64,000 nucleotides of DNA. Origin: an uncultured archaeon. GTDB taxonomy: Archaea; Asgardarchaeota; Jordiarchaeia; Jordiarchaeales; Jordiarchaeaceae. Under the pieces are notes generated by a model. That model saw only the letters and a program-made list of their open reading frames with translations. It made no database searches and had not been told where the DNA came from. Positions 2,798-63,964 of the stretch are shown here, piece after piece. Location: positions 31,912 through 95,911 of the forward strand of contig CAZECW010000187.1 of NCBI GenBank assembly GCA_964510585.1, read 5' to 3'. The first letter of the stretch is position 1, and each line of letters begins with the position of its first letter. The translations under genes were made by a program, and so were the position numbers.

Positions 2798-2852
2798 GGC
2801 AAATTTCTTTTATTGTTACACACAGATAAATAATTGTTGATGGTGGTTTTAC

Positions 2853-3632
2853 ATGAATGTGCGACAACCCGTAGAATACCATTGTAATCCGGATTTCACA
2901 ACTGGAGCTGGGGTAATTATAGATGCTCTCAAAAAAAATCGGACACTAATTATCATAGGTGAGTGTACTATAGAGTATCAGGGGCGTGCAAACTCTGAGT
3001 TAGGTTTAGGGGAGCGCATAGTGCTTATAAAGAAGGATGGAAGCTTTTTGGTTCACCGAGCTTGGGATTCTCAACCAGTAAATTGGCAGCCTCCAGGATG
3101 TATCTTTCAAACCAAATCCAGTAAAAAGGGTGTGCTTCTTAAGGCAATAAGAAAAAAACCAAGGGAATCCATTGGAATATTGTTCCCGAAACTTTTTATC
3201 ATCCTCGTTTTGAATTTGAAGGACGAAGCAGAATTCATCATGTTTGGTAGCGAGGAAGACATGCAGAGGGCAATCCTAGCGAAGCCTGATCTAATTGAGG
3301 AAGGTTTTAAGCCAATTCTAAAAGAAAAGGTGGTTGAGCAGGGATTCGTGGACGTATACGGTGTAGATAATCAGGGTAGAACTTTAGTGATAGAGTTGAA
3401 GAGAAGAAAGGCCCAAGTTCAGGATGTGCTGCAACTATTAAAGTATCTGGAAGATATAAAAAGGAAAAGTGCTGGGCGTCCTGTGAGAGCAATGCTTGCC
3501 GCGCCCTCCATATCTAAAGAAGCGTCTTTAATGATTCAGGCGAAGGGCCTTGAATTCAAAACTCTGAGTCCTAAAACATGCGCTGAAGTTTTAAGATTAA
3601 CCGCCTCGAAAAAAATAACCGAGTTCATGTGA
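2853..3632 (+). CDS. nucS: endonuclease NucS (EndoMS)
   Basis: 'IVLIKKDGSFLVH...QPVNWQPPG' and the C-terminal RecB-like 'VIELKRRKA' motif are typical of archaeal NucS, and the length is about 259 aa. Confidence 0.8.
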   Translation: MNVRQPVEYHCNPDFTTGAGVIIDALKKNRTLIIIGECTIEYQGRANSELGLGERIVLIKKDGSFLVHRAWDSQPVNWQPPGCIFQTKSSKKGVLLKAIRKKPRESIGILFPKLFIILVLNLKDEAEFIMFGSEEDMQRAILAKPDLIEEGFKPILKEKVVEQGFVDVYGVDNQGRTLVIELKRRKAQVQDVLQLLKYLEDIKRKSAGRPVRAMLAAPSISKEASLMIQAKGLEFKTLSPKTCAEVLRLTASKKITEFM

Positions 3633-3863
3633 AAAATGCGTTTAGTTTATATGAACTAGCTCAGAAATAAATTTGAATATCAACCACATCTTTATATACT
3701 ATATGTGATGTGAATATGTGGAAAAAGGGTTCACCCCTAAATTTAATGTTTACAGAATTAAAAGCACGTTTAAAATGCGAAACTGAACATTTCAAAGAGG
3801 TAGAAGTTAAAACTTGCTTTTGCTAATATTTTACTCCTTGGTGGGTATGCCTAGAAGACTACA

Positions 3864-5627
3864 TTGTTGGTAGGAGGAAAAAATTTGGAATCAAGACTTG
3901 AAGAAATATTGAATAGAATAGTTAAGTCGGGCAAAATTAGTCGTGAGGAGGCTTTGAGGCGCATTAATGAGAAAAAGAAGAAGATGGGTGGTTTGCTTAC
4001 GGATGAGGGAGCTGCTCATCTTGTGGCGAAAGAATTAGGGTTAGACGTTTATGAGAATATTAGTTACAAGAAGCCAGCTCTCGAAATCAAGGACATTTCC
4101 TTGGATATGAGGAACGTAACAATTACTGGGGTGATTACTCGCATTTTTCCCGCCAAAGAATTTACTTCTAAAGATGGGAGAAAGGGCAAAATGGCCAGCA
4201 TACTACTTTCTGATAAATCTGGGGAGCTTCGCTTGGTTTTGTGGGGTGAGCACGTAGAACAAATAGAAAAGGGTAAGATAAAGGAGGGGCAAATTGTTCG
4301 CGTGTTCTATGGCTACGTAAAAGAGGGGTTGAAGGGTAATCCCGAGATACATTTGGGGTACAGAGGAAGATTAGAGATAGAGCCTAAAGACGTGAAGCCC
4401 AGTGATTATCCCAAACCAAAAACTGGGCTCATCAAAATAAGTGAAATTGAGCCAAATATGATAAGTGTAGACACTGTAGGCGTCATACAGAGGCTCTCAC
4501 CCACATCAGAATTCACAAGACCAGACGGCAGTCATGGGAGAGTCTGTAATGCAACTATGGTAGATGAAAGCGGGGAAATAAGGGTTGTTTTTTGGGACGA
4601 CCAAGTGGAGTTGGCTGAGAGGCTCAGTGAGGGGGACACAATTAAAGTTGAGGGTGGATACACCAAAGTTGGTCTAAGAGAAGCACCAGAGCTACACATT
4701 GGCAAATTAACAAGAGTGACTGTAAACCCCGACATTGAAGTAAAGGTTGAAATTAGCCCACAGCCTCAAGAAATATCCGCAAAAATCAAAGATTTGAAGC
4801 CTGATATGAGAAGCGTAAACATAGAAGGACGCGTAGTAAGTGTTTCCGATGTCCGAGAATTCACAAGAAAGGACGGATCAAGTGGTAGGATGATTTCATT
4901 CACCATCGCGGATGACACCGCGGGAGTTAGAGTCGCCGCCTGGGGAGACCATGCTGAAACTCTTAGTGGAATCTCGGAGGGTGACACCCTAAAAATAAGG
5001 AGAGCATATACCCGCACTGGTTTACAAGGCGAGGTTGAAGTGCATCTGGGAAGATTTACTGAGGTGGAGTTGAACCCTGCTGAGATTGAAATTCCCGACG
5101 TTAAACTCGATGTTAAACCCAAAGCCACAAGTGTAACGAGAAAAAGCATATCCGAGCTGGAGAACAATCAGACAGTTGAAGTCAGAGCCACCCTGGTCCA
5201 GCTTTACCAGAAAAAACCCGTTTATGAAGCCTGCCCTAAATGCGCCAAAAAAGTTGAAAAAGTAGACGAAGAATGGACGTGTAAGAATTGTGGGCCAGTA
5301 GAGGCTCCAGTAATCCGATACATGTTCAGCGGAGTCTTAGATGATGGCACCGGAGCCATTCGAGCAAACTTTATGGGAGATGCGGCTCAAAAATTGCTAA
5401 GCATGACTCCCGAAAAGGCGTATGAACTGATTAGAAAATCCAGCAACCAAATAGAACCCCTGAAACTGAAGGCGCCAGAGGTGGAGGGCAAAGAAATAGT
5501 AGCCACAGCAAGGGTTACATACAATGAATTTACCAAATTATTGGAACTAAACATAATAGACATTAGAGAACCAACCCCCGAGGAAGAATCAAAAATACTT
5601 ATGTCAAAACTTAATAAGAGAAAGTAG
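3864..5627 (+). CDS. rpa: replication protein A (single-stranded DNA-binding, multi-OB-fold with C4 zinc ribbon)
   Basis: An N-terminal helical RPA1-like segment is followed by three to four repeated OB-fold units ('VTITGVITRIF', 'VDTVGVIQRLS', 'VNIEGRVVSVS', 'VEVRATLVQLY'). A 'CPKC...CKNCG' zinc ribbon lies near the C-terminus. The frame begins at TTG, and no in-frame ATG precedes the conserved N-terminus. Confidence 0.8.
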   Translation: MLVGGKNLESRLEEILNRIVKSGKISREEALRRINEKKKKMGGLLTDEGAAHLVAKELGLDVYENISYKKPALEIKDISLDMRNVTITGVITRIFPAKEFTSKDGRKGKMASILLSDKSGELRLVLWGEHVEQIEKGKIKEGQIVRVFYGYVKEGLKGNPEIHLGYRGRLEIEPKDVKPSDYPKPKTGLIKISEIEPNMISVDTVGVIQRLSPTSEFTRPDGSHGRVCNATMVDESGEIRVVFWDDQVELAERLSEGDTIKVEGGYTKVGLREAPELHIGKLTRVTVNPDIEVKVEISPQPQEISAKIKDLKPDMRSVNIEGRVVSVSDVREFTRKDGSSGRMISFTIADDTAGVRVAAWGDHAETLSGISEGDTLKIRRAYTRTGLQGEVEVHLGRFTEVELNPAEIEIPDVKLDVKPKATSVTRKSISELENNQTVEVRATLVQLYQKKPVYEACPKCAKKVEKVDEEWTCKNCGPVEAPVIRYMFSGVLDDGTGAIRANFMGDAAQKLLSMTPEKAYELIRKSSNQIEPLKLKAPEVEGKEIVATARVTYNEFTKLLELNIIDIREPTPEEESKILMSKLNKRK

Positions 5628-7685: not shown

Positions 7686-8543
7686 ATGAAAATTTTGAAA
7701 GTACAGGACATCATGGAAGATAAAGTACCGTATGTAACAGTGCCAGGGACTAGAGATGAAGTTCTGAGCGTTATGAGGGAGACTAAAAAAACCTACCTAC
7801 CTGTAGTAAAGAAGGGTAAGATGGAGGTTGTAGGAACAATTTCAGAGAGAAATCTTATGGATAAGCCCGAAGAAAGTCAAATTGCGCTACTCATGAAAAG
7901 AGACCCCATAACTGTTTCTAAGGAAACAACAGTGAGGGAGCTAGTTAAGATACTTTTAGAAAACAACCTGAGATACATCCCTGTCACTAAAGACGGCAAA
8001 GAACTGGTTGGGATGGTGTCAGTATCGGATGTGGTTAGGAAGGCCATAGCGGTGGAGAAAGATTTGGGCCCCATAAAAGACTATGTTAAAAAAGAGCTGG
8101 TCACTGTTTGGGAAGGCACACCTATTCCCGTAGCGTTCAAAATAATGAGACTGGCAAGAGTAAATGTATTACCTGTACTTGATGATAATGGTAATTTGTC
8201 GGGTATAGTTGATGATTCTGACTTTCTACATTTAAGCGAGGTGGTTTCCGAAGAGAAAGTGTCAAGTATATCTGCTACCAGCGAGGGCACCGACTGGAGC
8301 TGGGATTCCGGGGACATTTTCCACATCACCACTAAAATACTTCGTTTGCCCAATAAGCCAGTTAAAGAGGTAATGACCAAAAGCGTGGAAACCGTAACAG
8401 AGCTCACAAGCTTTGACGACTGCGCCAGAAAGATGAGAAAGTTCGATTTAAATCAGATACCAGTAACCGACGCTAAAGGAAACCTCAGCGGAATAATACG
8501 CGACATTGACTTAATCAGAGGCTTCTTCCAGATCAGCAAATAA
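7686..8543 (+). CDS. CBS-domain protein (tandem CBS pairs)
   Basis: Repeated 'IPVTD..G.L.GI' CBS signature segments, about four CBS repeats. Confidence 0.65.
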   Translation: MKILKVQDIMEDKVPYVTVPGTRDEVLSVMRETKKTYLPVVKKGKMEVVGTISERNLMDKPEESQIALLMKRDPITVSKETTVRELVKILLENNLRYIPVTKDGKELVGMVSVSDVVRKAIAVEKDLGPIKDYVKKELVTVWEGTPIPVAFKIMRLARVNVLPVLDDNGNLSGIVDDSDFLHLSEVVSEEKVSSISATSEGTDWSWDSGDIFHITTKILRLPNKPVKEVMTKSVETVTELTSFDDCARKMRKFDLNQIPVTDAKGNLSGIIRDIDLIRGFFQISK

Positions 8544-8638
8544 GAATAGAACTCCCCAAAAGCAGTCTCATCGAATTCTCCGTGCCTAGTTTAATAATGC
8601 TGGGTAACTCTTCTATTACTTTATTTACTTCTTTGTGG

Positions 8639-8839
8639 TTACACGCTTCTTAAGCCGTAGTCTCTTACTTTTACACCTGCGACATTTGGTTGCATAGAGG
8701 GCGTTTCGCGCGTAGCACTTCCTACATATCTTGACATATAGTAGGTGTGTTGCCGCAATTCTTCTTTTATCGGGATCTCCAATAGGCATACTCTGTCACC
8801 TGCGAGCTTGAGCACTGTCATTTTAAAGATATGATACAC
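8639..8839 (-). CDS. small hypothetical protein (66 aa), not assignable
   Basis: This is an ORF in an otherwise empty 550-bp gap. It has no recognisable motif and may be spurious. Confidence 0.2.
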   Translation of the reverse strand: MYHIFKMTVLKLAGDRVCLLEIPIKEELRQHTYYMSRYVGSATRETPSMQPNVAGVKVRDYGLRSV

Positions 8840-9094
8840 TTTTAAGCTTTTTCTACAAACTTATAGGCAGTCATATGGATATTTTTTGGTTGTGGGAGTG
8901 GTATTGTCGTCTGTGGGCTTTTTTGAATCTTTACAAACTCTGTTTTCCAAACTTGTAGAACTATTAGAAGAACCGGGCGGCCACTTCATATGCAATGAAA
9001 TAAATTTATGAGTTAGCAATTTAACCTTAAAAATCCAAAATCGTATATTTTCTTTCAACTGATTGTCTGGAAAATTTGAGATGGAGGATAGTGT

Positions 9095-10228
9095 TTGCGC
9101 CTTTTTGAATATGAGTGTAAAAAAATACTTCAAGACCAGGGCATTCCAGTACCTAAGGGTTCAGTTGCCGATTCGCCTGGAGAAGCAGTTAAAATTGCTG
9201 AAGGTTTGAGGGGGCCAGTGGTAGTAAAAGCTCAAATTCCCATTGGAGGCAGAGGCAGACTAGGAGGAGTAAAGTTTGCAGAAGGCCCCAAAGAGGCGGG
9301 AGAAAAGGCTGCCGAGCTGATTGGCTCCTATGTGGGAGATATTAAAGTAGAGCGAGTGTTAATAGAAGAAAAAATTGATTTCAGAGATGAAATCTACATT
9401 GGGATAACCATAGACCGCTCTGCTAAAAGACCAGTTGCCATAGTAAGCCGGTTTGGCGGAATGGACATTGAACAAGTGGCATTTAAAACACCAGATAGGG
9501 TACACAAACATTACATTAATCCAATAAGTGGACTAAATGAGGAAGAATCCATAAATCTGACTGAGAAAATGCGACTTGAAACTGAAGAACTTATACAAGT
9601 TTCTTACATTCTGAAACGTTTGTGGGAAATAACACGCAAATACGATGGAGAATTGGTGGAAATAAATCCTCTGGTTAAAACTGTTGATGGAAAATTCTTA
9701 GCTTTGGATGCCAAACTGGTCATCGATGACAACGCTCTTTTTAGACATCCTGAATTTAAAACACACCAGTCGCCCCTAACTTCCGACTTGGAGGCTAAGG
9801 CGCTTGCAGAAGGCTTGACCTATGTCCAGTTGGATGGTGATATTGGTGTAGTTGGTAACGGTGCAGGGCTGACTATGGCTACCATGGACCTACTTAGCCT
9901 CTATGGCGGGAAACCCGCAGACTTCCTCGACTTGGGTGGAGGGGCTACAAGGGAAAATGTTTCAGCAGCATTAAAAATTCTGCTAAGTAACAAGAGAGTA
10001 AAAGTTGTACTGATAAACGTTCTGGGAGGTATAACCCGCTGCGACGAAGTAGCAATGGGAATAATTAACGCCTATAGTGTGTCTTCTTCAAGAGTTCCTC
10101 TCGTGGTTCGAATGATGGGAACCAACGAAGCAGAGGGGAGAAAACTCCTAAAAGAGATAGGGATAGAAACATTTAGAGATATGGAGGAGGCGGCTCAAAG
10201 AGCAGTGGAATTATCAGGGAGGTTTTGA
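9095..10228 (+). CDS. sucC: succinyl-CoA synthetase (ADP-forming) β subunit
   Basis: The N-terminus 'LFEYECKKILQDQGIPVP...VVVKAQIPIGGRGRLGGVKF' aligns with the SucC ATP-grasp domain. The gene is immediately followed by sucD. Confidence 0.85.
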   Translation: MRLFEYECKKILQDQGIPVPKGSVADSPGEAVKIAEGLRGPVVVKAQIPIGGRGRLGGVKFAEGPKEAGEKAAELIGSYVGDIKVERVLIEEKIDFRDEIYIGITIDRSAKRPVAIVSRFGGMDIEQVAFKTPDRVHKHYINPISGLNEEESINLTEKMRLETEELIQVSYILKRLWEITRKYDGELVEINPLVKTVDGKFLALDAKLVIDDNALFRHPEFKTHQSPLTSDLEAKALAEGLTYVQLDGDIGVVGNGAGLTMATMDLLSLYGGKPADFLDLGGGATRENVSAALKILLSNKRVKVVLINVLGGITRCDEVAMGIINAYSVSSSRVPLVVRMMGTNEAEGRKLLKEIGIETFRDMEEAAQRAVELSGRF

Positions 10229-46964: not shown

Positions 46965-47240
46965 TTAGTCTTTTCCCAGTGTGATCTCAATAGTTGAAAC
47001 ATTAATCGTTGAACCGTTCTCTGCCGTGATGGGCTCAGTTCCAATTTTTATGTCCTTAGGTTTAGCCTCTGAAACGAATCTGTTTCTCACTATCTCCGCC
47101 ACGTCTACAGCTCTGCTTATGGAGCGGCCACGTGCCTTCAAAGTCACTTCCTTTTTTCCGTTATGGAAAAGAGTTATGCATGCTAAAACATAATTCATCA
47201 CGGGTTTGGATCCTATGTAGATAGAGTTTTCTTCTGACAT
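46965..47240 (-). CDS. albA: chromatin protein Alba
   Basis: '[11 protein letters not shown]...[20 protein letters not shown]' is a canonical Alba sequence. Confidence 0.85.
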
Positions 47241-47544
47241 GTTTGTTACCTCTTCCGCGCTTTTGGATTAGTTGCATAACTACTAAACGCCGTATCTACC
47301 TAGAAATAATAAAGTTTTTGGTGACACAAAAAGTCTAATTATTAAGCAAAAAACTAAGAACCGTTTTTAAAGAGGAATACCCATAAAGAATAACTACTTT
47401 TTAAAAATATGATGATTTTCGTTTTCATAACTCGGGCTTCTGCAACAAACATATAGTTGAATTTTTATATCTTTAAAAAAAATATAAAATTAAAGATTTA
47501 AACATAGTATATTAAATCCTTCCAATCTCTAAAAATTCTGGGTA

Positions 47545-49599
47545 ATGGTTAATATGATTAAGGCGTTCCACATTCTTCTGAAGTCCGGTGAGCCCCTTTT
47601 CCACAGGGTTTATGGTAAGGAGCAGGTTGATGAATCGCTTTTTTCGGGGTTTCTAGGCGCTGTTTACAACTTTGCTCAGGAACTGGGCCATGGAGATATT
47701 AAGACTGTGGAGGTTGGTGATGCAAGGTTCGTATGCGAAGTTTCTGAGAACTTGATTTTCGTGGCTGTTGTTGGAAAAGACGACGATGAACAAGAACTAA
47801 AAAATTTTCTAGGCTTTGCTTCTAGAGCCTTTGTTAACCGCTTCAGAGAGGAACTTAAAACATGGCGTGGAAATGTGTCTATCTTTAGGGAATTCACCCA
47901 AGAGTTAGATCACTTAGTGGAAGATTATCAAACGAAGCGCCTCCCCGGTAAGGTTAAACTGGTGCCTTTTCTAAGAGATTCTTCTGGGGGATCAAGTTAC
48001 CCCTTTGATGTGGAAATAGCCTCTGTTTTCTGTTTACTGGAAGATATAAGAGATCGTGGAGGGGGCTTTCTCTGGAAAAAGCCAGAGGAGGCGTTGAGGG
48101 GTATTGTAAGAGTTTTATGGCCTTTTTGGATAGTGCCTTTTGAGGATGGAGACCGGGGAGTTATAGTGGATGCTATGAGTATGGCGCCCCTCCAAATACG
48201 AACCAAGCGTTACTCGGCTTTAGATAAAGCTGATAATTTTCTCAAAATAAATAGTGTAGATGTGTTTGTAAATTCTCTTGAGGATCTAATATTGGATTTA
48301 GAAAGTGAGAAATCGGAGGAATTTCCACTATATGGATTTTTAGTTCCAGAGTTAGTTAAAGATTTGGAGATCAGCTTTTCTCAAGCCAGAGTGGGTGAGA
48401 CTAAGGATTATGTTGTAGTCCGCCCCCTTGTAACTCGCACCCAGACGGTTGAGAATAAAACTGTTTTTATGAAGTTAATTCAAGATTTGGAAACAAGTTC
48501 TCAAAGACTAATGGAAAAGGAAAATTTCTTAACATTAATAACTGAGAAGTGGCTTAAGGTAATAAATGAAAAGATGGTGGAGACCCGGGAAAGTTATAGA
48601 GTCAAAATAGAGGAAACAGTTAAGGATGTCGAGAAGCAGATTGGAATACTCTTACAGCTCAGAGAGGAGGAACTGAAAAAACTTGATGCTTGGTTTGCTG
48701 AAGCAGATAAGAATCTTATACTGGAAATAAAAGAATTGTTTGGTCCACTGATTGAGGTTTTAGAAGATGTGGCGCTGAAATCCACCGAGGAGATAGGAAA
48801 GTCAATCGATGAAAAAATTAGTGTGTTGGAAGTTATAGAGGGGAGAATTCAAAAATTAGCCAACGTTTCGGAGTATATGAATAAGACCAAGAAATTGGTG
48901 GAGAACATTTCTAAGAGTATAAAGAAAATTGATTCAACTATTGAGAAAATAAACAAGAAAATAGAAGTTGACAAAAATTCCATTCTGAAAGACTTTGACA
49001 GAAAAATCATGGAACAAAACAGTCGAGTAGACTCGCTAAAAGAAGAAGCAAAAGATGTCCTCAGCAAACAACAGTTTTTAATGGATAGAATTACATCTAA
49101 ACTCCAAGAATTAAGGCAGCTGATTCAACGTGAACGCAAAGAAGTCGACCGGCTTTTAAAATTGTTAACTTCATTGATAATTAAATTGCCGGACAAAATA
49201 TTTTCTCCATCTCTATTTTATATCCCCCTATATATTGGAAAATTCGAAGATACGAAGCAAGAAAGATTTTTTGTGGTACCCCCATTAGTTCTGCTAAAAT
49301 CGAATGAAACTATTAGTTGTGACTTTGGACAGAAAACACTTCCCCTGGATCTACCTAACCCTGCGTTTCTAGAAGCTGTAAAACGAAAGGCTGAAACACT
49401 AATTAATGATAGTAAGGAGCTAAAATTAGAAATTCTAAAGGGGTTTAAAAAATCAAATCTAATAAATTCGCAACAAATAGAGACAAGCGTTTACGAGGGC
49501 TTAAACAATCTATTACGCCTCAATATTCTTACTGAGAAGGACTTTCAAATTTTGAAAGCTAGAGCCAAGGAGGTTTTTAGGACGGAGGAGAGAGTTTGA
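47545..49599 (+). CDS. large coiled-coil protein with N-terminal Roadblock/longin-like α/β domain
   Basis: The N-terminal roughly 110 aa has a βααββα pattern ('IKAFHILLKSGEPLF...FLGAVYNFAQELG...IKTVEVGDARFVCEVSENLIFVAVVG'). The remainder is heptad-rich and K/E-rich. Confidence 0.5.
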   Translation: MVNMIKAFHILLKSGEPLFHRVYGKEQVDESLFSGFLGAVYNFAQELGHGDIKTVEVGDARFVCEVSENLIFVAVVGKDDDEQELKNFLGFASRAFVNRFREELKTWRGNVSIFREFTQELDHLVEDYQTKRLPGKVKLVPFLRDSSGGSSYPFDVEIASVFCLLEDIRDRGGGFLWKKPEEALRGIVRVLWPFWIVPFEDGDRGVIVDAMSMAPLQIRTKRYSALDKADNFLKINSVDVFVNSLEDLILDLESEKSEEFPLYGFLVPELVKDLEISFSQARVGETKDYVVVRPLVTRTQTVENKTVFMKLIQDLETSSQRLMEKENFLTLITEKWLKVINEKMVETRESYRVKIEETVKDVEKQIGILLQLREEELKKLDAWFAEADKNLILEIKELFGPLIEVLEDVALKSTEEIGKSIDEKISVLEVIEGRIQKLANVSEYMNKTKKLVENISKSIKKIDSTIEKINKKIEVDKNSILKDFDRKIMEQNSRVDSLKEEAKDVLSKQQFLMDRITSKLQELRQLIQRERKEVDRLLKLLTSLIIKLPDKIFSPSLFYIPLYIGKFEDTKQERFFVVPPLVLLKSNETISCDFGQKTLPLDLPNPAFLEAVKRKAETLINDSKELKLEILKGFKKSNLINSQQIETSVYEGLNNLLRLNILTEKDFQILKARAKEVFRTEERV

Positions 49600-49609
49600 A
49601 AAATAAAAT

Positions 49610-50722
49610 TCAACCAATCAGTTCATATACTGTTGTTCTCTGAACTGGGATCCGTCCACAGTCTTTGATGAGGGCTATTATAGTTTCGGGGGGAAGATAC
49701 TCTCCACTAGGAGAGCCCGCAATTTTTGAAATATTTTCCTCGATTAATGTTCCCCCGAAATCATTCGCGCCCGCGTTTAAGCAGAACTGAGCAAATTTTG
49801 TGCCAAGCTTAACCCAGCTCACCTGGATGTTATTTATCAACCCGTCGAACATTAGGCGGGAAATAGCATAAACTTTCACATCTTCCATGCCCGTGGCGCC
49901 TGGCCGGGAGGAAAAATTCTTGTAGAGCTCTGTTTGTTGGTGAATGAAGCTGAGTGGAACAAACTCTGTGAATCCCCTAGTTCTCTTCTGTATATTCCTT
50001 AAAATATCCATATGGACTGCCTTGTCCCTACTGCTTTCTATATGCCCATACATCATAGTGCTTGAGGTCAATATTCCTAACCTATGGGCTTCCTCAATAA
50101 TCTTAATCCATTCCTTTACTGATATTTTCGTGGGGCAAATCACTTCCCTAACTTTATCCACTAATATTTCTGCTGCTGTTCCGGGCATGGAGTTTAATCC
50201 TGCTTCCTTTAGAATCTTTAAGACTTCGCGTGTGCTTAAACCTTCCTTTCTTGCAGCGTGGTATATCTCCATTGGGCTGAAGGCGTGAATGTGTATGTCT
50301 GAGCTAACCCTTCTCACTGCTTTTATTATTTCTATGTATAAGTCAAGGGTAGCTTCTGGGTGCAGTCCACCTTGAATGCAAACTTCGGTGGCTCTCATAT
50401 TTATTGCTTCGCGGGTTTTGTTTTCAATCTCTTTTGTTGATAAAAGAAATTGTTTCGGAGAGTCTTTGTCTTCCCTAAATGCGCAAAAACGGCATCTATT
50501 GATGCACACATTTGTAAAGTTAATGTTTCGATTTATGACGTAAGTTACAATGTCACCCACAGCTCTTCTCCTAATCTGATCTGCAACAAGGATTAGGGCT
50601 AGAAACTCTTGGCCAGTGCAATTGAACAGGAGTTCTGCTTCGTCTACTGAAGGGGGATGTCCATCTATGGCTTTTTGAAGTATGTGGGAAACTTCTCCAT
50701 TTATGTTATCTAGCAAATTCAA
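49610..50722 (-). CDS. cofH: radical-SAM FO synthase subunit 2 (CofH-like; MqnC/MqnE family not excluded)
   Basis: 'NINFTNVCINRCRFCAFRED' is present. The gene is paired with and overlaps a CofG-like gene. Confidence 0.6.
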   Translation of the reverse strand: MNLLDNINGEVSHILQKAIDGHPPSVDEAELLFNCTGQEFLALILVADQIRRRAVGDIVTYVINRNINFTNVCINRCRFCAFREDKDSPKQFLLSTKEIENKTREAINMRATEVCIQGGLHPEATLDLYIEIIKAVRRVSSDIHIHAFSPMEIYHAARKEGLSTREVLKILKEAGLNSMPGTAAEILVDKVREVICPTKISVKEWIKIIEEAHRLGILTSSTMMYGHIESSRDKAVHMDILRNIQKRTRGFTEFVPLSFIHQQTELYKNFSSRPGATGMEDVKVYAISRLMFDGLINNIQVSWVKLGTKFAQFCLNAGANDFGGTLIEENISKIAGSPSGEYLPPETIIALIKDCGRIPVQRTTVYELIG

Positions 50723-55435: not shown

Positions 55436-56062
55436 TTGTCCGTGATACCTATGTTGGATGCTTTTTATCAAAAATTAGGTGAGGACATCAAAACCGCTAA
55501 CGATTTGGAGAAGAGGGGGGATTTTAGAGCTGCGGCGAAACTTTGGATTGAGATAGCTGAATACTGCTTAAAATTTGCTAGATCTGAATATGCTTCTGAG
55601 GAAATTAGAAAAAACCTTATTGAGAGGTCTGAAGGCTATATTGAGCATGCAAAAATGCTAAAAATTAGACCAGCACCCTTAAAGGGCTCCATAGAAAAAA
55701 GCTCCCAAGCAATAGACTATTTGGAAAAAGCTTTGGATGATAAGGTTAGAGCTGATAAACAGTGGATGGCCCTTGACCTAAACTCGTACATAATGACTAT
55801 GTTTAGTGTAATTGAAAAACTCCTCTACCACGTTTATATATCCAAAACGGGTAATCTTCCAAGCCTCGAAGAAACATTTACTTCTCTTGTTAAATGGGCC
55901 TACAGGGAAGGAATCATCAGTGATCACCCCGACAATATTGAATTCGTTAGGCTCCTTTACGAAAAATTATCCAAAAAATCGCAAAAAATAACTAGTGAAC
56001 AGGCTATGGAAGCAAGAGAAATAATGGAGCGAGTGTATAAAGAGTTATGCGAAAACCTATAA
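55436..56062 (+). CDS. MIT-domain protein (standalone; no AAA domain)
   Basis: Residues about 10-80 form a three-helix pattern that aligns by eye with Vps4/spastin MIT domains ('DLEKRGDFRAAAKLWIEIAEYCLKFA...RKNLIERSEGYIEHAKMLK'). Confidence 0.45.
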   Translation: MSVIPMLDAFYQKLGEDIKTANDLEKRGDFRAAAKLWIEIAEYCLKFARSEYASEEIRKNLIERSEGYIEHAKMLKIRPAPLKGSIEKSSQAIDYLEKALDDKVRADKQWMALDLNSYIMTMFSVIEKLLYHVYISKTGNLPSLEETFTSLVKWAYREGIISDHPDNIEFVRLLYEKLSKKSQKITSEQAMEAREIMERVYKELCENL

Positions 56063-57004: not shown

Positions 57005-57829
57005 TTACTTGCTAGAAATTTTTTTGAGCACATCTTGAATATCATATAAGCAGGTTAAGACACTTTCTATATCAAGTATATCCTGCTGGAGCAAGTTGCC
57101 AGCACGTGAAAGATCTATCTGTAATCTGAGCATAAAGGGCGAAAAACCTTCATTTAATTCAGGGTTTTCCGTATAAATCGCCGCGTGTATCAAGTCAACG
57201 CCACCAAAGCCCAGGTCGAAAAGCAAGTCGTCAACTTTCAAAAGAAATTCGACTATTCGTTGCTTATCACCCTTGGTGCGTAGTTCTGCCTCGGCATCAG
57301 ACAGACTCTTACTAATCTCGTCCAGCCTCTTTTTCAGAGAATCCGTGTTTATAGGCATCTCCTCTCGATACATTGTTGCCTCTGGACAGAAATTAAACCA
57401 CCACTCAAGGTAGTGCGCTGTGCTGCAAAAGAATTTTTTATCATGATTTAATGGCTCCACGGAAACAGTGTACATGCATTCTTCACCACAAATAGTGCAA
57501 ACCCCAGCCCCATCTTGATATGGTCTAATATCTCCACAAAAAGGTACACGAACGTACATAGCGTCGCCTTTAGGGGGTAAAAGTTTGGGGGGAATTTGCA
57601 ACTCTTTACTGAACGGTTTTGAGTCTAATTCGGCAAATATTGCAGTCCAGACCGGGCCTCGTGGAGTTCTAACTAAAAGAGGGTTTCTTCTCGGGTGGTT
57701 GTTGCAATATGTCCAATACGGATCTTCGATTTTGAATTTTCTAACCTCACAGAAGGGCTCTTGGCTTTTATCACTATTTGCTTTATTGAATTTACAGGTT
57801 CCACAGCAATCGCTGCCACCATTAGGCAT
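57005..57829 (-). CDS. cysteine-rich hypothetical protein (N-terminal Cys cluster, C-terminal helical domain)
   Basis: 'CCGTCKF...C..C' is followed by multiple further Cys residues. There is no family match by eye. Confidence 0.3.
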   Translation of the reverse strand: MPNGGSDCCGTCKFNKANSDKSQEPFCEVRKFKIEDPYWTYCNNHPRRNPLLVRTPRGPVWTAIFAELDSKPFSKELQIPPKLLPPKGDAMYVRVPFCGDIRPYQDGAGVCTICGEECMYTVSVEPLNHDKKFFCSTAHYLEWWFNFCPEATMYREEMPINTDSLKKRLDEISKSLSDAEAELRTKGDKQRIVEFLLKVDDLLFDLGFGGVDLIHAAIYTENPELNEGFSPFMLRLQIDLSRAGNLLQQDILDIESVLTCLYDIQDVLKKISSK

Positions 57830-58187: not shown

Positions 58188-59726
58188 GTGACTTTCACTA
58201 GGTTTTTTAAAGGCGGTGGGTTCGATTTGATGTCCCTGGATAGATTCAAGTGTACTTCTTGTAATGAGGCTGAGGCGGCTTACTACTGTGAGGAGTGCAA
58301 ATCAGCTTTCTGTCTGGGATGCGCCCAGGAGAGAAGGGAGGAGTTTTTTATCTGCGGTTCATGTGGCTTCAAGGAAACAAACCTTGGAATGGATAGGGAT
58401 AAGAAAAGCTCCTCAAGATGTCCGAATTGTGGTTCAACTGATTTGAGATCTGGGATTAGAAAATGGAAACTTTGTCCTAATTGTCGCTCTGGTATGGTTA
58501 TAAGCGTTCAAGATAAGAGGGTGGAGCTTAAAAAAACCTTTATTGATAATGTTAACAGCATTCTATATGGTTATGAATTGTTGAAAGATTTTTCGAGGAG
58601 ACTTAGGGAAACTAGAAAGAGGCTAATCTTTCTCAGGCACAGAAGGTATTTCCACTATCCAAAAATGGAGGAAACTCTAATCTCCCTTTTCCAAGAAATT
58701 ATTTCCTTGAAAAAGAAGGTGGAGGCGCGGGCTCAACAGGTCTTAAATGTGATTCAAGTGCAACTCGTGGATTTTTCTTACCCTGATAATTGGAGCCCAC
58801 GTGATTTTGCACAGATTCAAACAGCTGTGGACAGGATAAAAGCCGATGTGAATGACTACAAAGTATATGTGAAGGGTCTTATGGAACTACCTGAAAGGAA
58901 TCTCGATACGGTTGTTTCCTTGGTAAAATTGCTGAGTTTTCATTGGAAGTTCTTTGAGGAACATAGAGAAAAAATTGATTTAGAAATTGGGGAAAAACCT
59001 GTGGCAGCCATTCAGAGGGTAAAATATGTGGGAAGCTCTTTTCTCAGTTTAGAAAAATGTAGTGGAATACTTTTGTTAACAGATAAAAGGATAATTTTTA
59101 TCAGAGAAAAAGGAATTTTAAACAAGTCGTACCAGAAACATTTTGAACTCCCCCTAAAAGCTCACAAAATCGTAGTTGAAGGATCAATATGGAAAAAACT
59201 CTCTTTTGAAGGTTCCCAAGGGGATGTGCGATTCTCCGCATCCAAAAATACCCTAAAAGCAATTGAAAGATACGTAGAATTGGCTAAAAACTTTGATAAA
59301 AGTTCCATAAAGGATAAAACCCAAACTGACAAATTGGAAAAGCTGGAAATAACCCTAGACGACCTGAAAACTGAGCTACACAAAAAAATTATGAGCGTTT
59401 TCACACCCCAAATTAAGGAGCCCACTCGCGGATTTGAACTACAGCCACCTGTTCCCACCGTTACCCCCAGAGTTGCTCAAAAGTCCGCACCCCCACTAAC
59501 CACTTATAATCGGGTACAAGTTCAAACTGTGGAAGGATCAAAAAGAGGGGATGTTCTGGATTGGGAACGAAGGAAATTCTCCATTGAGCAGCTTCTCAAA
59601 AAAATTGAGGAACTTTGGCGGCGTGGAGACATTTCTGTAGAGGAGTACCTGAAAAGAATGAAGAATCTTTATGAGGAACTCTACGTCTTGAACCAGAAAT
59701 TAAAGGAAATCGAAGTTCAGGCGTAA
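58188..59726 (+). CDS. multi-zinc-finger / coiled-coil / PH-like (GRAM or bacterial-PH) / SHOCT-like tail protein
   Basis: The N-terminal B-box-like 'CTSCNEAEAAYYCEECKSAFCLGCA' is followed by two CxxC ribbons and a long coiled coil. 'GILLLTDKRIIFIREKG' is PH/GRAM-like. The C-terminal 'ELWRRGDISVEEYLKRMKNL' is SHOCT-like. Confidence 0.45.
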   Translation: MTFTRFFKGGGFDLMSLDRFKCTSCNEAEAAYYCEECKSAFCLGCAQERREEFFICGSCGFKETNLGMDRDKKSSSRCPNCGSTDLRSGIRKWKLCPNCRSGMVISVQDKRVELKKTFIDNVNSILYGYELLKDFSRRLRETRKRLIFLRHRRYFHYPKMEETLISLFQEIISLKKKVEARAQQVLNVIQVQLVDFSYPDNWSPRDFAQIQTAVDRIKADVNDYKVYVKGLMELPERNLDTVVSLVKLLSFHWKFFEEHREKIDLEIGEKPVAAIQRVKYVGSSFLSLEKCSGILLLTDKRIIFIREKGILNKSYQKHFELPLKAHKIVVEGSIWKKLSFEGSQGDVRFSASKNTLKAIERYVELAKNFDKSSIKDKTQTDKLEKLEITLDDLKTELHKKIMSVFTPQIKEPTRGFELQPPVPTVTPRVAQKSAPPLTTYNRVQVQTVEGSKRGDVLDWERRKFSIEQLLKKIEELWRRGDISVEEYLKRMKNLYEELYVLNQKLKEIEVQA

Positions 59727-59808: not shown

Positions 59809-60444
59809 TTACTCCTTTTCTTTGGGCTTCTTTGAACTCTCCAATTCCCTTTTCAGGTCTTCTAGCTCAGATGCCAAGGAAGATTTTTCTGTTATTATGT
59901 CCCCCTGCGGTACTTTGGGTTCCTCTATGCCCTCCAATGCAATTTCCGCCTCTAGACGGTTTAACTCACTTTCAATATCTCCTGCCTCTTCGACGCCCAT
60001 TTCGGAAGGAGTTGCCAAAATGTCTGAGCTTCTAGAAATATCGCGCATAGCTTCCTCTTGCTCTATAATCATTTCGAGTATCTTTTCTGAGTTGACGAGT
60101 TTTCGGGCGTTTTCAAGCTCTGCTCCGGCGAGTTCAAATGCTTCCTTGAGTTCTAAGACATCATAGGCTTCTTCTATGGCGATGATTCTCGTTTCAAGGT
60201 TCTCAATAAATGCGGTGTACTTGCCTAGAAAATTCTGGTATCTTCTGAATTTTCTGAGGGCGAATGTTGCCATGCCTTTGTTGCCCATTTTTAGATACTG
60301 TTTAGCCTTGTTTCTTTCCTCGATTGCCTTCCTCTCGTAGTTTCGTGAACGCAGAGTTAGCCTATTTATACTAGTTCTTAGCTGTGCGATTATCTCGTCC
60401 TTGTTTTTGGGCCTTTTTCCAAAGAGTATATCTTTAATACTCAT
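59809..60444 (-). CDS. ESCRT-III / Snf7-family protein
   Basis: The α1-α2 hairpin 'AIEERNKAKQYLKMGNKGMATFALRKFRRYQNFL...LETRIIAIEEA' is the Snf7 signature. The C-terminus is acidic with a MIM1-like 'LEDLKRELE'. Confidence 0.7.
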   Translation of the reverse strand: MSIKDILFGKRPKNKDEIIAQLRTSINRLTLRSRNYERKAIEERNKAKQYLKMGNKGMATFALRKFRRYQNFLGKYTAFIENLETRIIAIEEAYDVLELKEAFELAGAELENARKLVNSEKILEMIIEQEEAMRDISRSSDILATPSEMGVEEAGDIESELNRLEAEIALEGIEEPKVPQGDIITEKSSLASELEDLKRELESSKKPKEKE

Positions 60445-60540: not shown

Positions 60541-61578
60541 CTACCCATATATTCTGTTTATTTCTTTTTGTCTGGTTTCAATAAAATCGATGAAATTTTC
60601 CAGTGAAGGATCCTCCTCAGCTTCTTCATGAACTAGTTCTGCTATGCTGAGCAGGGAGGCTGCTACATGTGTGCGTGCGGGCTCGGATTTTATCTCGGGC
60701 TTAATGAGAGCTACTATTCTCTTTTCAAAATCATTGAAAGTTAAAATCCTATCCACAAGGAGAATAAATGATTCGGTTATTCCCCTCTCCAAGTCCTGTT
60801 TTTCGTCTAATATCAAGTTGGCTGCCAGATTTTTGAGGGCCGGTTTCACAATGTCCTCTCTAAACCAATTGAAAAGTTTGCTCTTCTTATCTGATGGAGG
60901 AAGAAAGCTTGAAGCAGGGGCACTAATATTTTTAGGCTCTTTTTTAAGGTTCTCCGCCATTTTATGAATATTTGAACTTTTAATGGTCTCCATTGCCGCT
61001 AGTACCAGCGACTTCACCCCCAAAACCACTTCTCCTCTACTAAACCCCTCTAACATTTTTTCCAGAGCATGTCTGGCTTCCTCGAAGGAAACCTCTTTTG
61101 AAATAAAAGACTTGAAAAGTTCCAAGATTTTTGCTCTTGTTTCCAGAGCTTCACTGTAACCAACGCTATCCAGTGTCAAGATTCTGTAGCCTGGATCCAG
61201 AACTTGCTTGTCAAACCATCTTACAACTATGTATTCATCAGTAATTCTCTCTAAATCTTTTAGAGTAAGTTTGGGATCAGCTTCCTCCAACTCATTGCAA
61301 AGCTGCGAAGCGAATGTTTCAAATACTGAAGAGACGTAGTTTTGGAGAACTTCATCCAATTTGAGACCTTCTAAAATCTTCTCAACCCTCTTTTTGAACG
61401 CGGGCTCAGAAATTTTTCCCTCCACCCGCTTTTTAAAATATGGAAACACTTTCTCCCTGACCATTTGAGATTTCTCAATAAAATTAGCTACAATACTGTC
61501 TAGGACGCCGAAAACCACATACTCAAAAAATTCTCTTAAGATTTTTAGACCCTCTTCTGAATCAAAAATGTAGGGCAT
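60541..61578 (-). CDS. hypothetical α-helical protein (345 aa) between the HerA-like ATPase and Snf7 genes
   Basis: There is no motif. Its position inside the putative operon is the only evidence. Confidence 0.3.
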   Translation of the reverse strand: MPYIFDSEEGLKILREFFEYVVFGVLDSIVANFIEKSQMVREKVFPYFKKRVEGKISEPAFKKRVEKILEGLKLDEVLQNYVSSVFETFASQLCNELEEADPKLTLKDLERITDEYIVVRWFDKQVLDPGYRILTLDSVGYSEALETRAKILELFKSFISKEVSFEEARHALEKMLEGFSRGEVVLGVKSLVLAAMETIKSSNIHKMAENLKKEPKNISAPASSFLPPSDKKSKLFNWFREDIVKPALKNLAANLILDEKQDLERGITESFILLVDRILTFNDFEKRIVALIKPEIKSEPARTHVAASLLSIAELVHEEAEEDPSLENFIDFIETRQKEINRIYG

Positions 61579-61594
61579 TTAAATTCACCAAGAA

Positions 61595-63964
61595 TCATTC
61601 GATGAGTGACCTGCGCAGCTGCTCGATTTTTTCGAAAGTTTTCCTCTTTAAGAAAACATATTCATCCTCAGTCATCCTACCCAACTCAAAGTACTCATGT
61701 AGGCTCCTCAAATATTTCTGGAATTTCTCTATCTGCCTCAGAATCTCCTCCTGCCTTTTCTCCTTATCAGACACCTGTTCTTCCTCCTCTTCCTCTAATG
61801 GTTTAACACCCACTGGTTCGCTTACCGGTTTACTAATTTCCGGTTTAACGCCCTCTTCGGCGCTGATTCTGGGTATTGGTGGTGGGCTGGGTAATTCTGG
61901 AAGTTCTTCCTCTGTTATGGTTTCTCTCGTTAAGGGTTTTGGTCTTGGTGTGCGGGGAGCCGCCTTTAAGCCTTTAACTGTCTCTTTAATTGTTGTTACC
62001 ATGCCTGCTGCCTCATTTTTAAGCGCCGAAGTGGATGAAACACTAATTATTGTGTTTTCCTCGGTTTCAACTATCCCTACGGCCAATCTTGATTTCTCCT
62101 TGGAGGCTAAAACTACAGGTACGCTTTTTGTTGTGTCTATCTCTATTTGCCAACCTTCCTCCTTCAATTTTGTGTAGATTTCACGGATGGCTTCTCTGCT
62201 ATGCGCCTGTGTCACTATTGGTTCTGCTACTCCCTCCATTTTGGGGGCAGGGTACAAATGATCATAAAATCTGTATTCCAAGACTCGTTTTAGGTAGTCG
62301 GAGGCCAAATCCGTCGGTAAGCTGAGCACGGGCGGGGCTGGTATTGATATGTCTGGGGACACTTCCACCATTTCTTCTTCTGTAACTTCTTCCAAAGCTT
62401 CTAAAGCCTCAGCCTCTGCTTCGGGTGTGCCTCTTGTTTCCTCAACAGTTTTCTCAATTTCTGGAGTGGCAACCTGTTTTGAAGCAATGGCTGTGAGTTC
62501 TTCAATTATCTTGGGAAGGGCTTCGCGGCCAGAATGCTGACTCAGCCTGGGTCTTATCTTAACTACAAGGGCACGGTTACTTGTGATAGATTCGTCTGAA
62601 ACAATGGTCATTCCAACGGGAATGTTTCGTATAAATCCAGAATCCTTTATTTCTATGGGGACTTCCGCTGGTGATCTTTTTATGAAGGCAATAATGTCTG
62701 GTTCATAGGACAAATAGTGTGTTATCAACACGTCTAGTTGAGATAAAATTCTACTATCTGTGGCTGAGGGTTGCTGGGTCACAAGCACTAATCCACAGCC
62801 GGGTTTTCTTCCCAGTTTAGCATATTCTACGAGGGGTTCAGAAGCTGCGGTAACACCCTTAGAGGGAGCGAGTAGATGCGCTTCGTCAATCATCAGCCAA
62901 GTCACAGGAATCTCCGCCTCAACCTTTTCATCGATTGTTTCGCCCAACTGTGCAGCCTCTTCCATTCTTGATATCTGTGCTCTCACCTTGAGTATCTTAC
63001 GTGCCAGTATACCAATGATTAGGGCACGCAGGCTGTCATCTAGATGACTTACGTCAATGACAGATACCTGATTGGGAACCGCTAACTGAGTTAAGCTAGT
63101 TCCTTTGGCTGAGAAGATTCCCCACTGATTCGCAGATGAAAGTCTAGCAACCAAAGCTCTTCTAGTGTCACGTCTAAATCCTTTGTCCTCAGAAATGATG
63201 TCGGAACAATTCTCGATACATTTAATTAAATCCTCTATGCTGTAATCGTTTCCTTTACCGGGGACATCTAGTTCTTGGTCATCAATTGTAGCTCTGTAGC
63301 CTTTTTTAACCCTATCAATGACCTGTTCTGTTAAGAGACCGAGCGTGCTAAACCTGTCTATACCAAAGGTGTGGCACCAATCGTCAGCTGTTAACTCTGA
63401 AGGCCTCAACGAGAAGGGCTTATCCCTCGTTTGCTCCGGAACCTTATCATAGAAACCGATTGGAATAAAGACCTTCACGTTATCGAAGCCCTTGGGAGTG
63501 AGACTCCATTTTTCAAGAGCCTCCAATTCCTTTTCGTCCCAATTGGGGTACTTCATACTCCAAAAAATTCCCATAGGATCAACAATAATTGTAGCGATTC
63601 CCAGTCTTGATTCAGCCAATTCCTCCGCAATGACTCCCATAGTGTAGGATTTGCCAGAGCCCCTATGACCACTTATAAATATAACGTGAGGCTTTACCCC
63701 ATCAAGAAGAACCTTACAACCAAGCAGGTTCACATCTTTGCTGGTTCTCTCTCCCACACAACCAATGTAAAATGTTCCCTTGCAGCCAAGTTTGGCTTGT
63801 GTGGATTTTGTTCTCCCCAAAATTACTGATTCGCCCAAACTGTCTCTCAGAACGGTGAGTGGAGTGTCAACTATTTTAGGCGTGTCAACTATGTTTACCT
63901 TCTCAGAGTTAATTATGCTCGCCTCACCAAGAATGTAGGCCAACGCCTGCCAATAGTCCTTCAA
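61595..63964 (-). CDS. HerA/FtsK-superfamily (DUF87-like) ATPase with long acidic/Pro-rich linker and SHOCT-like C-terminal tail
   Basis: Walker A 'ISGHRGSGKSYT', 'IIVDPMGIF' (HerA 'DPHGEY'-like), Walker B 'LMIDEAHLL' and 'GRKPGCGLVLVTQQPS' are present. The C-terminal 'LGRMTEDEYVFLKRK' is SHOCT-like. Confidence 0.7.
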   Translation of the reverse strand: MKDYWQALAYILGEASIINSEKVNIVDTPKIVDTPLTVLRDSLGESVILGRTKSTQAKLGCKGTFYIGCVGERTSKDVNLLGCKVLLDGVKPHVIFISGHRGSGKSYTMGVIAEELAESRLGIATIIVDPMGIFWSMKYPNWDEKELEALEKWSLTPKGFDNVKVFIPIGFYDKVPEQTRDKPFSLRPSELTADDWCHTFGIDRFSTLGLLTEQVIDRVKKGYRATIDDQELDVPGKGNDYSIEDLIKCIENCSDIISEDKGFRRDTRRALVARLSSANQWGIFSAKGTSLTQLAVPNQVSVIDVSHLDDSLRALIIGILARKILKVRAQISRMEEAAQLGETIDEKVEAEIPVTWLMIDEAHLLAPSKGVTAASEPLVEYAKLGRKPGCGLVLVTQQPSATDSRILSQLDVLITHYLSYEPDIIAFIKRSPAEVPIEIKDSGFIRNIPVGMTIVSDESITSNRALVVKIRPRLSQHSGREALPKIIEELTAIASKQVATPEIEKTVEETRGTPEAEAEALEALEEVTEEEMVEVSPDISIPAPPVLSLPTDLASDYLKRVLEYRFYDHLYPAPKMEGVAEPIVTQAHSREAIREIYTKLKEEGWQIEIDTTKSVPVVLASKEKSRLAVGIVETEENTIISVSSTSALKNEAAGMVTTIKETVKGLKAAPRTPRPKPLTRETITEEELPELPSPPPIPRISAEEGVKPEISKPVSEPVGVKPLEEEEEEQVSDKEKRQEEILRQIEKFQKYLRSLHEYFELGRMTEDEYVFLKRKTFEKIEQLRRSLIE

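Follow-up and report, generated by a model that had tools for sequence, protein, structure and literature searches.

A longin domain joined to a predicted hairpin-stalk module in an Asgard archaeal protein with a probable link to small GTPases

Surveys of Asgard archaeal genomes have described about 130 Roadblock/longin families, longin–GTPase fusions, and lineage-restricted multidomain architectures that arise via domain shuffling (10.1101/2020.10.19.343400; PMC10933270). Asgard archaea have dozens of Rab/Arf/Rag-like GTPases together with well over 100 longin/Roadblock families. The targets of these switches are hard to infer, because the cultured cells have little or no endomembrane, and regulators are hard to pair with targets because their genes are not in operons (PMC10933270). 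Here we describe a protein of 684 residues, encoded on a 64,000-nucleotide stretch of contig CAZECW010000187.1 (hereafter the window), in which a longin domain is followed by a core module (residues ~136–684) that comprises two globular parts and a predicted hairpin stalk. Its open reading frame (ORF; 47545–49599, + strand, coordinates including the stop codon) lies exactly where an earlier note, made from the DNA sequence, had located it. The source names of close homologues are Candidatus Jordarchaeaceae, Freyarchaeota or Lokiarchaeia, and the window therefore derives from an Asgard archaeon (Jordarchaeia/Freyarchaeia).

The N-terminal module (residues ~5–131, numbered here and throughout by the 684-aa ORF; 47557–47937, + strand) is a genuine longin domain. 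A first AlphaFold2 (AF2) run with 11 close sequences was poor (predicted local distance difference test score, pLDDT, of 54) and was discarded; the model used, from a 74-sequence alignment including divergent relatives, has a mean pLDDT of 90.6 and a predicted template modelling score of 0.72. Its elements (β7–12, β17–22, α30–46, β54–57, β60–67, β70–77, α82–105 and α111–131) have the longin order β-β-α-β-β-β-α-α, with a five-stranded sheet between helices and no N-terminal helix. The domain superposes on solved longin domains, and nearly all Foldseek matches in the PDB are longins (AP σ/µ, COPI ζ/δ, Mon1–Ccz1, Fuzzy–Inturned, BLOC-3, Sec22b and VAMP7), with SNARE-type and adaptor-type longins among the best. 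Pfam PF19036 (Fuz_longin_1) matches residues 7–97 with 30.1 bits, above the curated cut-off of 26.1; the N-termini of relatives match Clat_adaptor_s (22.6 bits, cut-off 22.5), Longin or Intu_longin_1 instead and, on such profile matches, the ‘Fuz’ label is not specific. The signature of the subfamily consists of G15, D29–E30, L32, S34–G35–F36, A39, F43, F96, W107, G109, F114 and F117.

The earlier note had likened this N-terminus to Roadblock/LC7/longin folds. The longin part of that assignment is borne out by Pfam, AF2 and Foldseek, and the AF2 model and PDB search give no indication of an unrelated fold. The Roadblock part has to be dropped, as the α-β-β-α-β-β-β order with an initial helix, which defines Roadblock/LC7 proteins (MglB, LAMTOR), is not present. 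Longins of the GTPase-activating protein (GAP) type (FLCN, SMCR8, NPRL2) possess a GP motif at the loop before β2 and a conserved arginine finger (PMC12290439); both are absent from the target longin, in which only G15 is invariant.

The remainder of the protein had been taken for an uninterrupted heptad-rich region of about 550 residues, which does not match its composition. Residues 131–300 (10 Pro and 11 Gly) and 546–684 (8 Pro) are globular parts, and residues 301–545 alone are proline-poor (one Pro; 43% charged). The coiled coil occupies residues ~298–542 (245 aa) and is modelled as two helices, with helix 1 (residues 298–417; 48436–48795) bearing a net charge of −7 and helix 2 (residues 427–542; 48823–49170) one of +7; between them lies a predicted hairpin turn (residues 418–426; 48796–48822; pLDDT ~60), all on the + strand. 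A single-sequence Fourier test at 3.5 residues was weak, with register shifts, and a family-averaged spectrum was used instead. This gives a hydrophobic period of 3.55–3.65 residues in both long helices (z 17–19 versus shuffles, reached by 0/1000), compared with a z of only 0.5 for the middle domain. The domain boundaries and helical periodicity of the protein are regarded as shown.

Several properties bear on how the two helices are arranged. Among 74 family members, differences in length cluster at residues 403–442, and the lengths of the two arms covary (r 0.77). A Foldseek search of a viral structure library returned only hairpin proteins of the SMC/Rad50/SbcC type, matching at the level of architecture (TM-scores 0.1–0.2). 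Since the arms are equal, joined by nine residues and of opposite charge, with indels at the tip and viral hairpins as matches, the two ~118-residue helices most likely fold back on each other to form an antiparallel stalk of ~17 nm. The C-terminal part would then be brought beside the α/β domain, and together they would make up a ‘head’ from which the stalk projects. The flanks of the stalk tip (residues 401–420 and 441–460) are the most conserved blocks of the protein within the close Jord/Frey family, whilst in the wider family the tip is the site of length variation; this pattern of conservation suggests a lineage-specific binding site at the tip.

The predicted head comprises a middle α/β domain (residues 136–297; 47950–48435), a β-rich segment after the stalk (residues 543–605; 49171–49359) and a C-terminal four-helix region (residues 606–683; 49360–49593), all on the + strand. 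Its motifs are the most conserved features of the core family: LPF, ExAxxFxLxExxRxKGGG, WPxWxxP and DG(L/M) in the middle domain; YxPxY...RxxxxPP in the β-rich segment, which in the form YxPxY...R(F/Y)xxxPP is the family's most conserved motif; and NLL and GLxxL in the four-helix region. These motifs are arranged around a two-arm helical region of ~240 aa, and the window protein, which can be aligned to the family over its full length (611 bits with the hidden Markov model, HMM, of the family), has all of them.

The core module proved to be an Asgard-restricted family in its own right, independent of the longin and found with alternative N-terminal domains. An exhaustive profile (HMM) search of 1.84 billion representative proteins gave 1114 matches at E ≤0.001, and the classes and fusion counts reported here rest on the best 150 of these. 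A word-indexed homologue search, even with the 74-sequence alignment, found only the close family and two further proteins (P0012 and P0177); coiled-coil words probably swamped its candidate list. The best 150 matches fall into full-length relatives of 650–700 aa (P0013–19, P0154), many proteins of ~540 aa that match only profile positions ~135–680, and many others, short or with different extensions, whose match is limited to positions 1–125. The core module usually occurs alone, as a protein of ~540 aa, and longin-less core proteins make up about 60 clusters at 50% identity among these 150. They are real forms, because stop codons interrupt the reading frame ahead of the core at one locus (L007), and the open frame upstream is at most ~60 codons long at five others (L008, L010–13). 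Those members with a source name are all ‘hypothetical proteins’ of Asgard archaea (Jord-, Frey-, Hel-, Hermod- or Promethearchaeota). The combination was originally described as uncommon in archaea, which holds outside the Asgard group but not within it, where the core module is widespread.

The core module corresponds to no family in Pfam, NCBIfam or PADLOC; such matches as were obtained score far below cut-off and are confined to the coiled-coil arms or to the C-terminal zinc ribbons of occasional members. Profiles of the middle and C-terminal domains gave only chance-level matches to PDB sequences (E ≥0.1), Pfam scans of these domains member by member returned nothing recurrent, and no part of the core is among the best PDB structural matches. 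An SMP_LBD match of the window protein (E 0.016–0.03) occurs in 1/30 members and was dismissed as noise. PADLOC and NCBIfam matches to ZorA, JetC, LmuB and SMC are confined to coiled-coil segments, and identity as a defence-system or SMC protein was rejected.

Some longin-less members have unusual contexts. P0157 and two others carry C-terminal double zinc ribbons (DZR, 33.6 bits) as a further accessory domain. In L010 (6706–10151) the core gene P0033 stands between genes for the large and small subunits of an aconitase-family enzyme, on the same strand, which is odd for a subunit pair that is usually adjacent. In L008 the core gene P0177 is followed, on the same strand and after a gap of 118 nt, by a gene (2822–4600) for a 592-aa P-loop (GDPGTGKS) protein without a Pfam family; the pair recurs on the ENA contig L009, and the window contains no homologue of the 592-aa protein.

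The evidence that ties this protein to small GTPases comes from gene fusions, of which there are two kinds. At least nine of the best 150 representatives join a longin of the target's subfamily directly to an Arf/Sar-like GTPase domain, whose P-loop lies near residue 133 and whose NKxD motif lies near residue 237; those fusions that are named are Asgard ‘SAR1 family’, ‘ARF-like’ or ‘SRβ’ GTPases. The target longin and that of P0027, a longin–Arf-like GTPase fusion, align without gaps over 122 residues at 35% identity (E 4e-28). The other kind involves the core module. In P0112, likewise of 684 aa, an intact Ras/Rab-type GTPase stands in the longin's place (Pfam Ras, 187 bits, residues 8–167), with motifs G1–G5 intact, including GDGAVGKT, DTGGQE, NKLD and SAK. 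A flexible Pro/Ser/Thr-rich linker follows, and then the whole core module, which a family profile that excludes P0112 matches with 182.8 bits (E 5e-58). Because P0112 is found on five contigs from three sources (NCBI, JGI and ENA), it is not an assembly chimera. Given the longin-bearing members and the P0112 fusion, the N-terminal slot of the core can therefore be empty or filled by either a longin or a Rab-like GTPase. In a rough neighbour-joining tree, calculated without support values, all longin-bearing members and P0112 fall in one of the two main divisions of the family.

The gene for P0112 occupies positions 8001–10055 in each of L015, L016 and L017 (NCBI GCA_016840515.1, JGI 3300028897 and an ENA assembly); in L015 two aconitase-family genes, here adjacent, lie ~4 kb from it. 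The longin subfamily of the target also occurs in P0038 (425 aa), where its fusion partner is a prenyltransferase α-α toroid domain (Pfam Prenyltrans, 105 bits). In eukaryotes the function of Rab proteins and Ykt6 depends on prenylation.

On balance we consider it probable that the target is a soluble two-module Asgard protein, the core of which is a scaffold or adaptor governed by a small GTPase, with the longin serving to recruit the switch. The core would act structurally, and the GTPase would determine its activity or location. In P0112 the switch would be built in, as the N-terminal Rab-like GTPase; in the target, which has a longin in the GTPase's place, it would be recruited in trans. 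The longin could bind a GTPase directly, as does the longin platform in TRAPP, Mon1–Ccz1 and SRX–SRβ, or form a pair with the longin of a longin–GTPase fusion protein. Partners would then bind to the conserved head and to the stalk tip, which is conserved within the lineage, as the output surfaces. We thus infer both GTPase binding by the target longin and a tethering or scaffolding role for the protein.

A number of points weigh against this interpretation. Some roles of longin domains do not involve GTPases, as in SNAREs and in adaptor-complex cores. The fusion of a GTPase to the core rests on one cluster, P0112, among the best 150 matches; no known fold was recognised in the head; and the hairpin and the packing of the head are predictions. 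Nor do the neighbouring genes, which have housekeeping roles, point to a function. No Arf/Ras-like GTPase or second longin gene was detected in the 64-kb window, which extends the earlier note's remark that no GTPase gene is adjacent, and at eight independent loci the ±8 kb around family members likewise contained no GTPase or longin gene; these neighbourhoods share no gene and give no operon support for a link to GTPases. It has been reported for a cultured Asgard archaeon that GTPase genes as a rule do not form operons with their longin or Roadblock partners (PMC10933270), and the missing neighbours are therefore to be expected. For the small-GTPase link that had been proposed for the N-terminal domain, the fusions (at least nine of longin to GTPase, and P0112) speak in favour, and gene neighbourhood, at the eight loci checked, does not.

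Were the longin instead a dimerisation or assembly module, the protein would be a GTPase-independent structural protein, whether cytoskeletal, ESCRT-associated or another scaffold, with no nucleotide switch. Eukaryotic longins with such roles are known, such as adaptor σ/µ cores and SNARE longins (PMC10933270), and longins of just these types are among the best structural matches. There is also no GTPase nearby, and a Snf7 gene and a candidate Znr-PH-CC-SB gene lie 9–11 kb downstream, in synteny with relatives, although about seven unrelated housekeeping genes on both strands intervene between the target and these ESCRT genes. We nonetheless regard this explanation as rather unlikely: fusions of this longin subfamily to Arf/Sar-like GTPases recur, and the sister core protein P0112 has a Rab-like GTPase in the longin's place. 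The golgin-like tether of the earlier note, taken here as a parallel dimeric rod that would capture membranes or vesicles at a distance via terminal GTPase-binding sites, is improbable. It would suit the combination of a longin with a long helical region, and there is Pfam noise from coiled-coil trafficking families (COG4_N, BLOC1S3 and Snapin), but these matches are far below cut-offs. The coiled coil is 245 aa long, not 550, and a turn, where the indels concentrate, divides it into two arms that are equal in length and opposite in charge. It has conserved globular parts on both sides, and GRIP/GRAB domains, transmembrane segments and lipid anchors are lacking, so that the golgin- or tether-like architecture described previously is not supported.

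Two further identities have little probability. The middle and C-terminal parts could be divergent second and third longins, which would make the protein an archaeal tri-longin guanine nucleotide exchange factor for Rab (Mon1/Ccz1/Fuzzy/HPS type) with a coiled-coil insertion; this is very improbable, as the target matches only LD1-type models, with no Fuz/Intu longin_2 or longin_3 match at E ≤10, and the longin_2 and longin_3 models are not among the 25 most-matched families listed for 74 members. When the middle domain was compared with the N-terminal longin profile by hhalign, the probability of a match was 0.4%, and there is no tri-longin paralogue partner in the window. Least credible is a degenerate SMC/Rad50-like chromosome or DNA-repair protein, with a split, ATPase-dead ABC head and an antiparallel coiled coil. 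In its favour are the architecture-level Foldseek matches to viral SMC/Rad50/SbcC proteins, weak matches to SMC, ASRP, JetC and LmuB in some family members, and the divergently transcribed neighbour, which encodes the chromatin protein Alba. The NCBIfam SMC matches, however, reach only 14–21 bits against a cut-off of 729 and lie in the coiled coil only, as do the PADLOC matches to JetC and LmuB; there is no P-loop ([AG]x4GK[ST]) in the target, and searches by fold in the PDB returned no SMC heads. Membership of the SMC/Rad50 family, an identity against which the earlier note had advised checking, was accordingly not found, and an SMC/Rad50/RecN-type ABC ATPase was rejected, with no Walker A motif and matches in the coiled coil only. 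A longin SNARE was likewise rejected, given no Synaptobrevin or SNARE Pfam match at E ≤10 and no transmembrane or lipid anchor. The protein thus has neither ATPase nor SNARE nor transmembrane features (maximum KD19 hydropathy 1.12; C-terminus ...RTEERV).

The ORF is monocistronic, being divergent from the Alba gene (46965–47240, − strand) and convergent with cofH (49610–50722, − strand), with only 10 nt from its stop codon to the end of cofH. The order of genes (TruD, AspRS, KH protein, Alba / ORF / CofH, CofG, PheA) is retained in relatives of ~62% identity. Translation probably begins not at the ATG at 47545 but at that at 47554–47556 (+ strand; M4), which would give a 681-aa product beginning MIKAF. 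This assignment, made from aligned upstream DNA of three loci, is based on the first ATG not being conserved (it is absent in L003 and L005), an in-frame TAG immediately upstream of the shared ATG in L005, and the ATG at 47554 being common to all; homologues mostly begin MIKAF or MVKAF at this position.

The spacer on the Alba side (47241–47544; ~300 nt) is conserved and A/T-rich. About 85 nt upstream of the start it contains the A/T-rich block TAGTTGAATTTTTATATCT (47454–47472, + strand), which is invariant in three loci despite coding regions that are only ~63% identical, and which is a candidate archaeal TATA/BRE element, a promoter function being suggested by its position and conservation. 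Several blocks of the spacer are invariant between loci with ~63% identical coding regions, such as AATAAT..AAAGTTTTTGGTGA toward Alba, and ATTTTTATAT and AAATATAA toward the target; these probably represent the two divergent promoters. An Rfam scan of the window returned no RNA family.

Further downstream, the window contains genes related to ESCRT. An ESCRT-III/Snf7 gene (59809–60444, − strand; 65 bits) lies ~10 kb from the target and is syntenic in L005 and L006. Convergent to it is a 512-aa ORF (58188–59726, + strand), which has no significant Pfam match; its sub-threshold matches run in the order zinc ribbons (residues 22–104), bacterial PH (290–350, E 0.007) and Vps23_core/steadiness box (466–500, E 0.04), and a 519-aa counterpart adjoins Snf7 in L005 and L006. 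This is the domain order of ‘Znr_PH_CC_SB’, a putative Asgard ESCRT-I protein (PMC11188069). A 208-aa ORF (55436–56062, + strand) has an N-terminal MIT-like match (23 bits, cut-off 30) and a faint HEPN match and, on these matches, could be an ESCRT-III-interacting protein. Two ORFs on the − strand have no Pfam family (57005–57829, 274 aa; 60541–61578, 345 aa); the latter is directly upstream of Snf7 on the same strand, and further upstream is a gene for a 789-aa HerA/DUF87-type ATPase (61595–63964, − strand).

A conserved module found alone in some proteins, and in others behind a longin or a Rab-like GTPase, provides ‘Rosetta-stone’ evidence, that is, a functional link read from domains that are fused in some genomes, and this nominates the core module as a downstream partner of Asgard GTPases. 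As a more far-reaching and only tentative proposal, the core may represent an effector or scaffold family with a direct connection to the small-GTPase systems of Asgard archaea, the first such family to be recognised, with a ~17-nm hairpin stalk, a previously unseen head fold and switching in cis (P0112) or in trans (through the target longin), and so a prokaryotic analogue or forerunner of the coiled-coil tethers and adaptors that GTPases recruit in eukaryotes. If the head fold is new or binds membranes, it would supply a missing piece in how trafficking-like machinery began before eukaryotes; otherwise the protein is one more case of longin domain shuffling in Asgard genomes.

Comparison with known systems places the target closest to the longin and Roadblock multidomain proteins of Asgard archaea (Liu et al. 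2020; Tran et al. 2024), with which it shares its host group. Text searches of the searchable literature found no description of the longin plus hairpin-stalk architecture or of the core module, and the module, for which the structure prediction is confident, appears to be undescribed, as do its alternative longin and Rab-like GTPase fusions. The partner of the longin is not a GTPase, Vps28-C, adaptin appendage, DENN, TRAPPC3 or two-component domain, as in the described Asgard proteins, but a hairpin-stalk module of ~550 aa with no Pfam, NCBIfam or PDB relative. The eukaryotic longins that act as GTPase platforms (TRAPPC1/C4, Mon1–Ccz1, Fuzzy–Inturned, SRX–SRβ and AP σ/µ–Arf1) differ from the target, which has a single longin, not three, and only 9–19% sequence identity to them. 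Unlike the longin SNAREs VAMP7, Sec22b and Ykt6, it has no SNARE motif match, C-terminal transmembrane segment or CaaX box, and globular domains enclose its helical part, which has four times the length of theirs. With SMC/Rad50-type hairpin proteins and the signalling hairpins of chemoreceptors, of which one MCP model is among the PDB Foldseek matches (rank 45), it shares a globular base, a long antiparallel two-helix stalk, here predicted, and a conserved tip; it differs from them in having no ATPase motifs, no MCPsignal match (E 1.9) and TM-scores of ≤0.2, and the resemblance is one of architecture, not homology. As in the Asgard longin–GTPase fusions, the longin belongs to a subfamily that is fused to Arf/Sar/Rag-like GTPases, and the lineage-restricted shuffling of longins with no operon linkage to GTPases agrees with the published picture, such that the target gene fits the longin domain shuffling already known from Asgard archaea.

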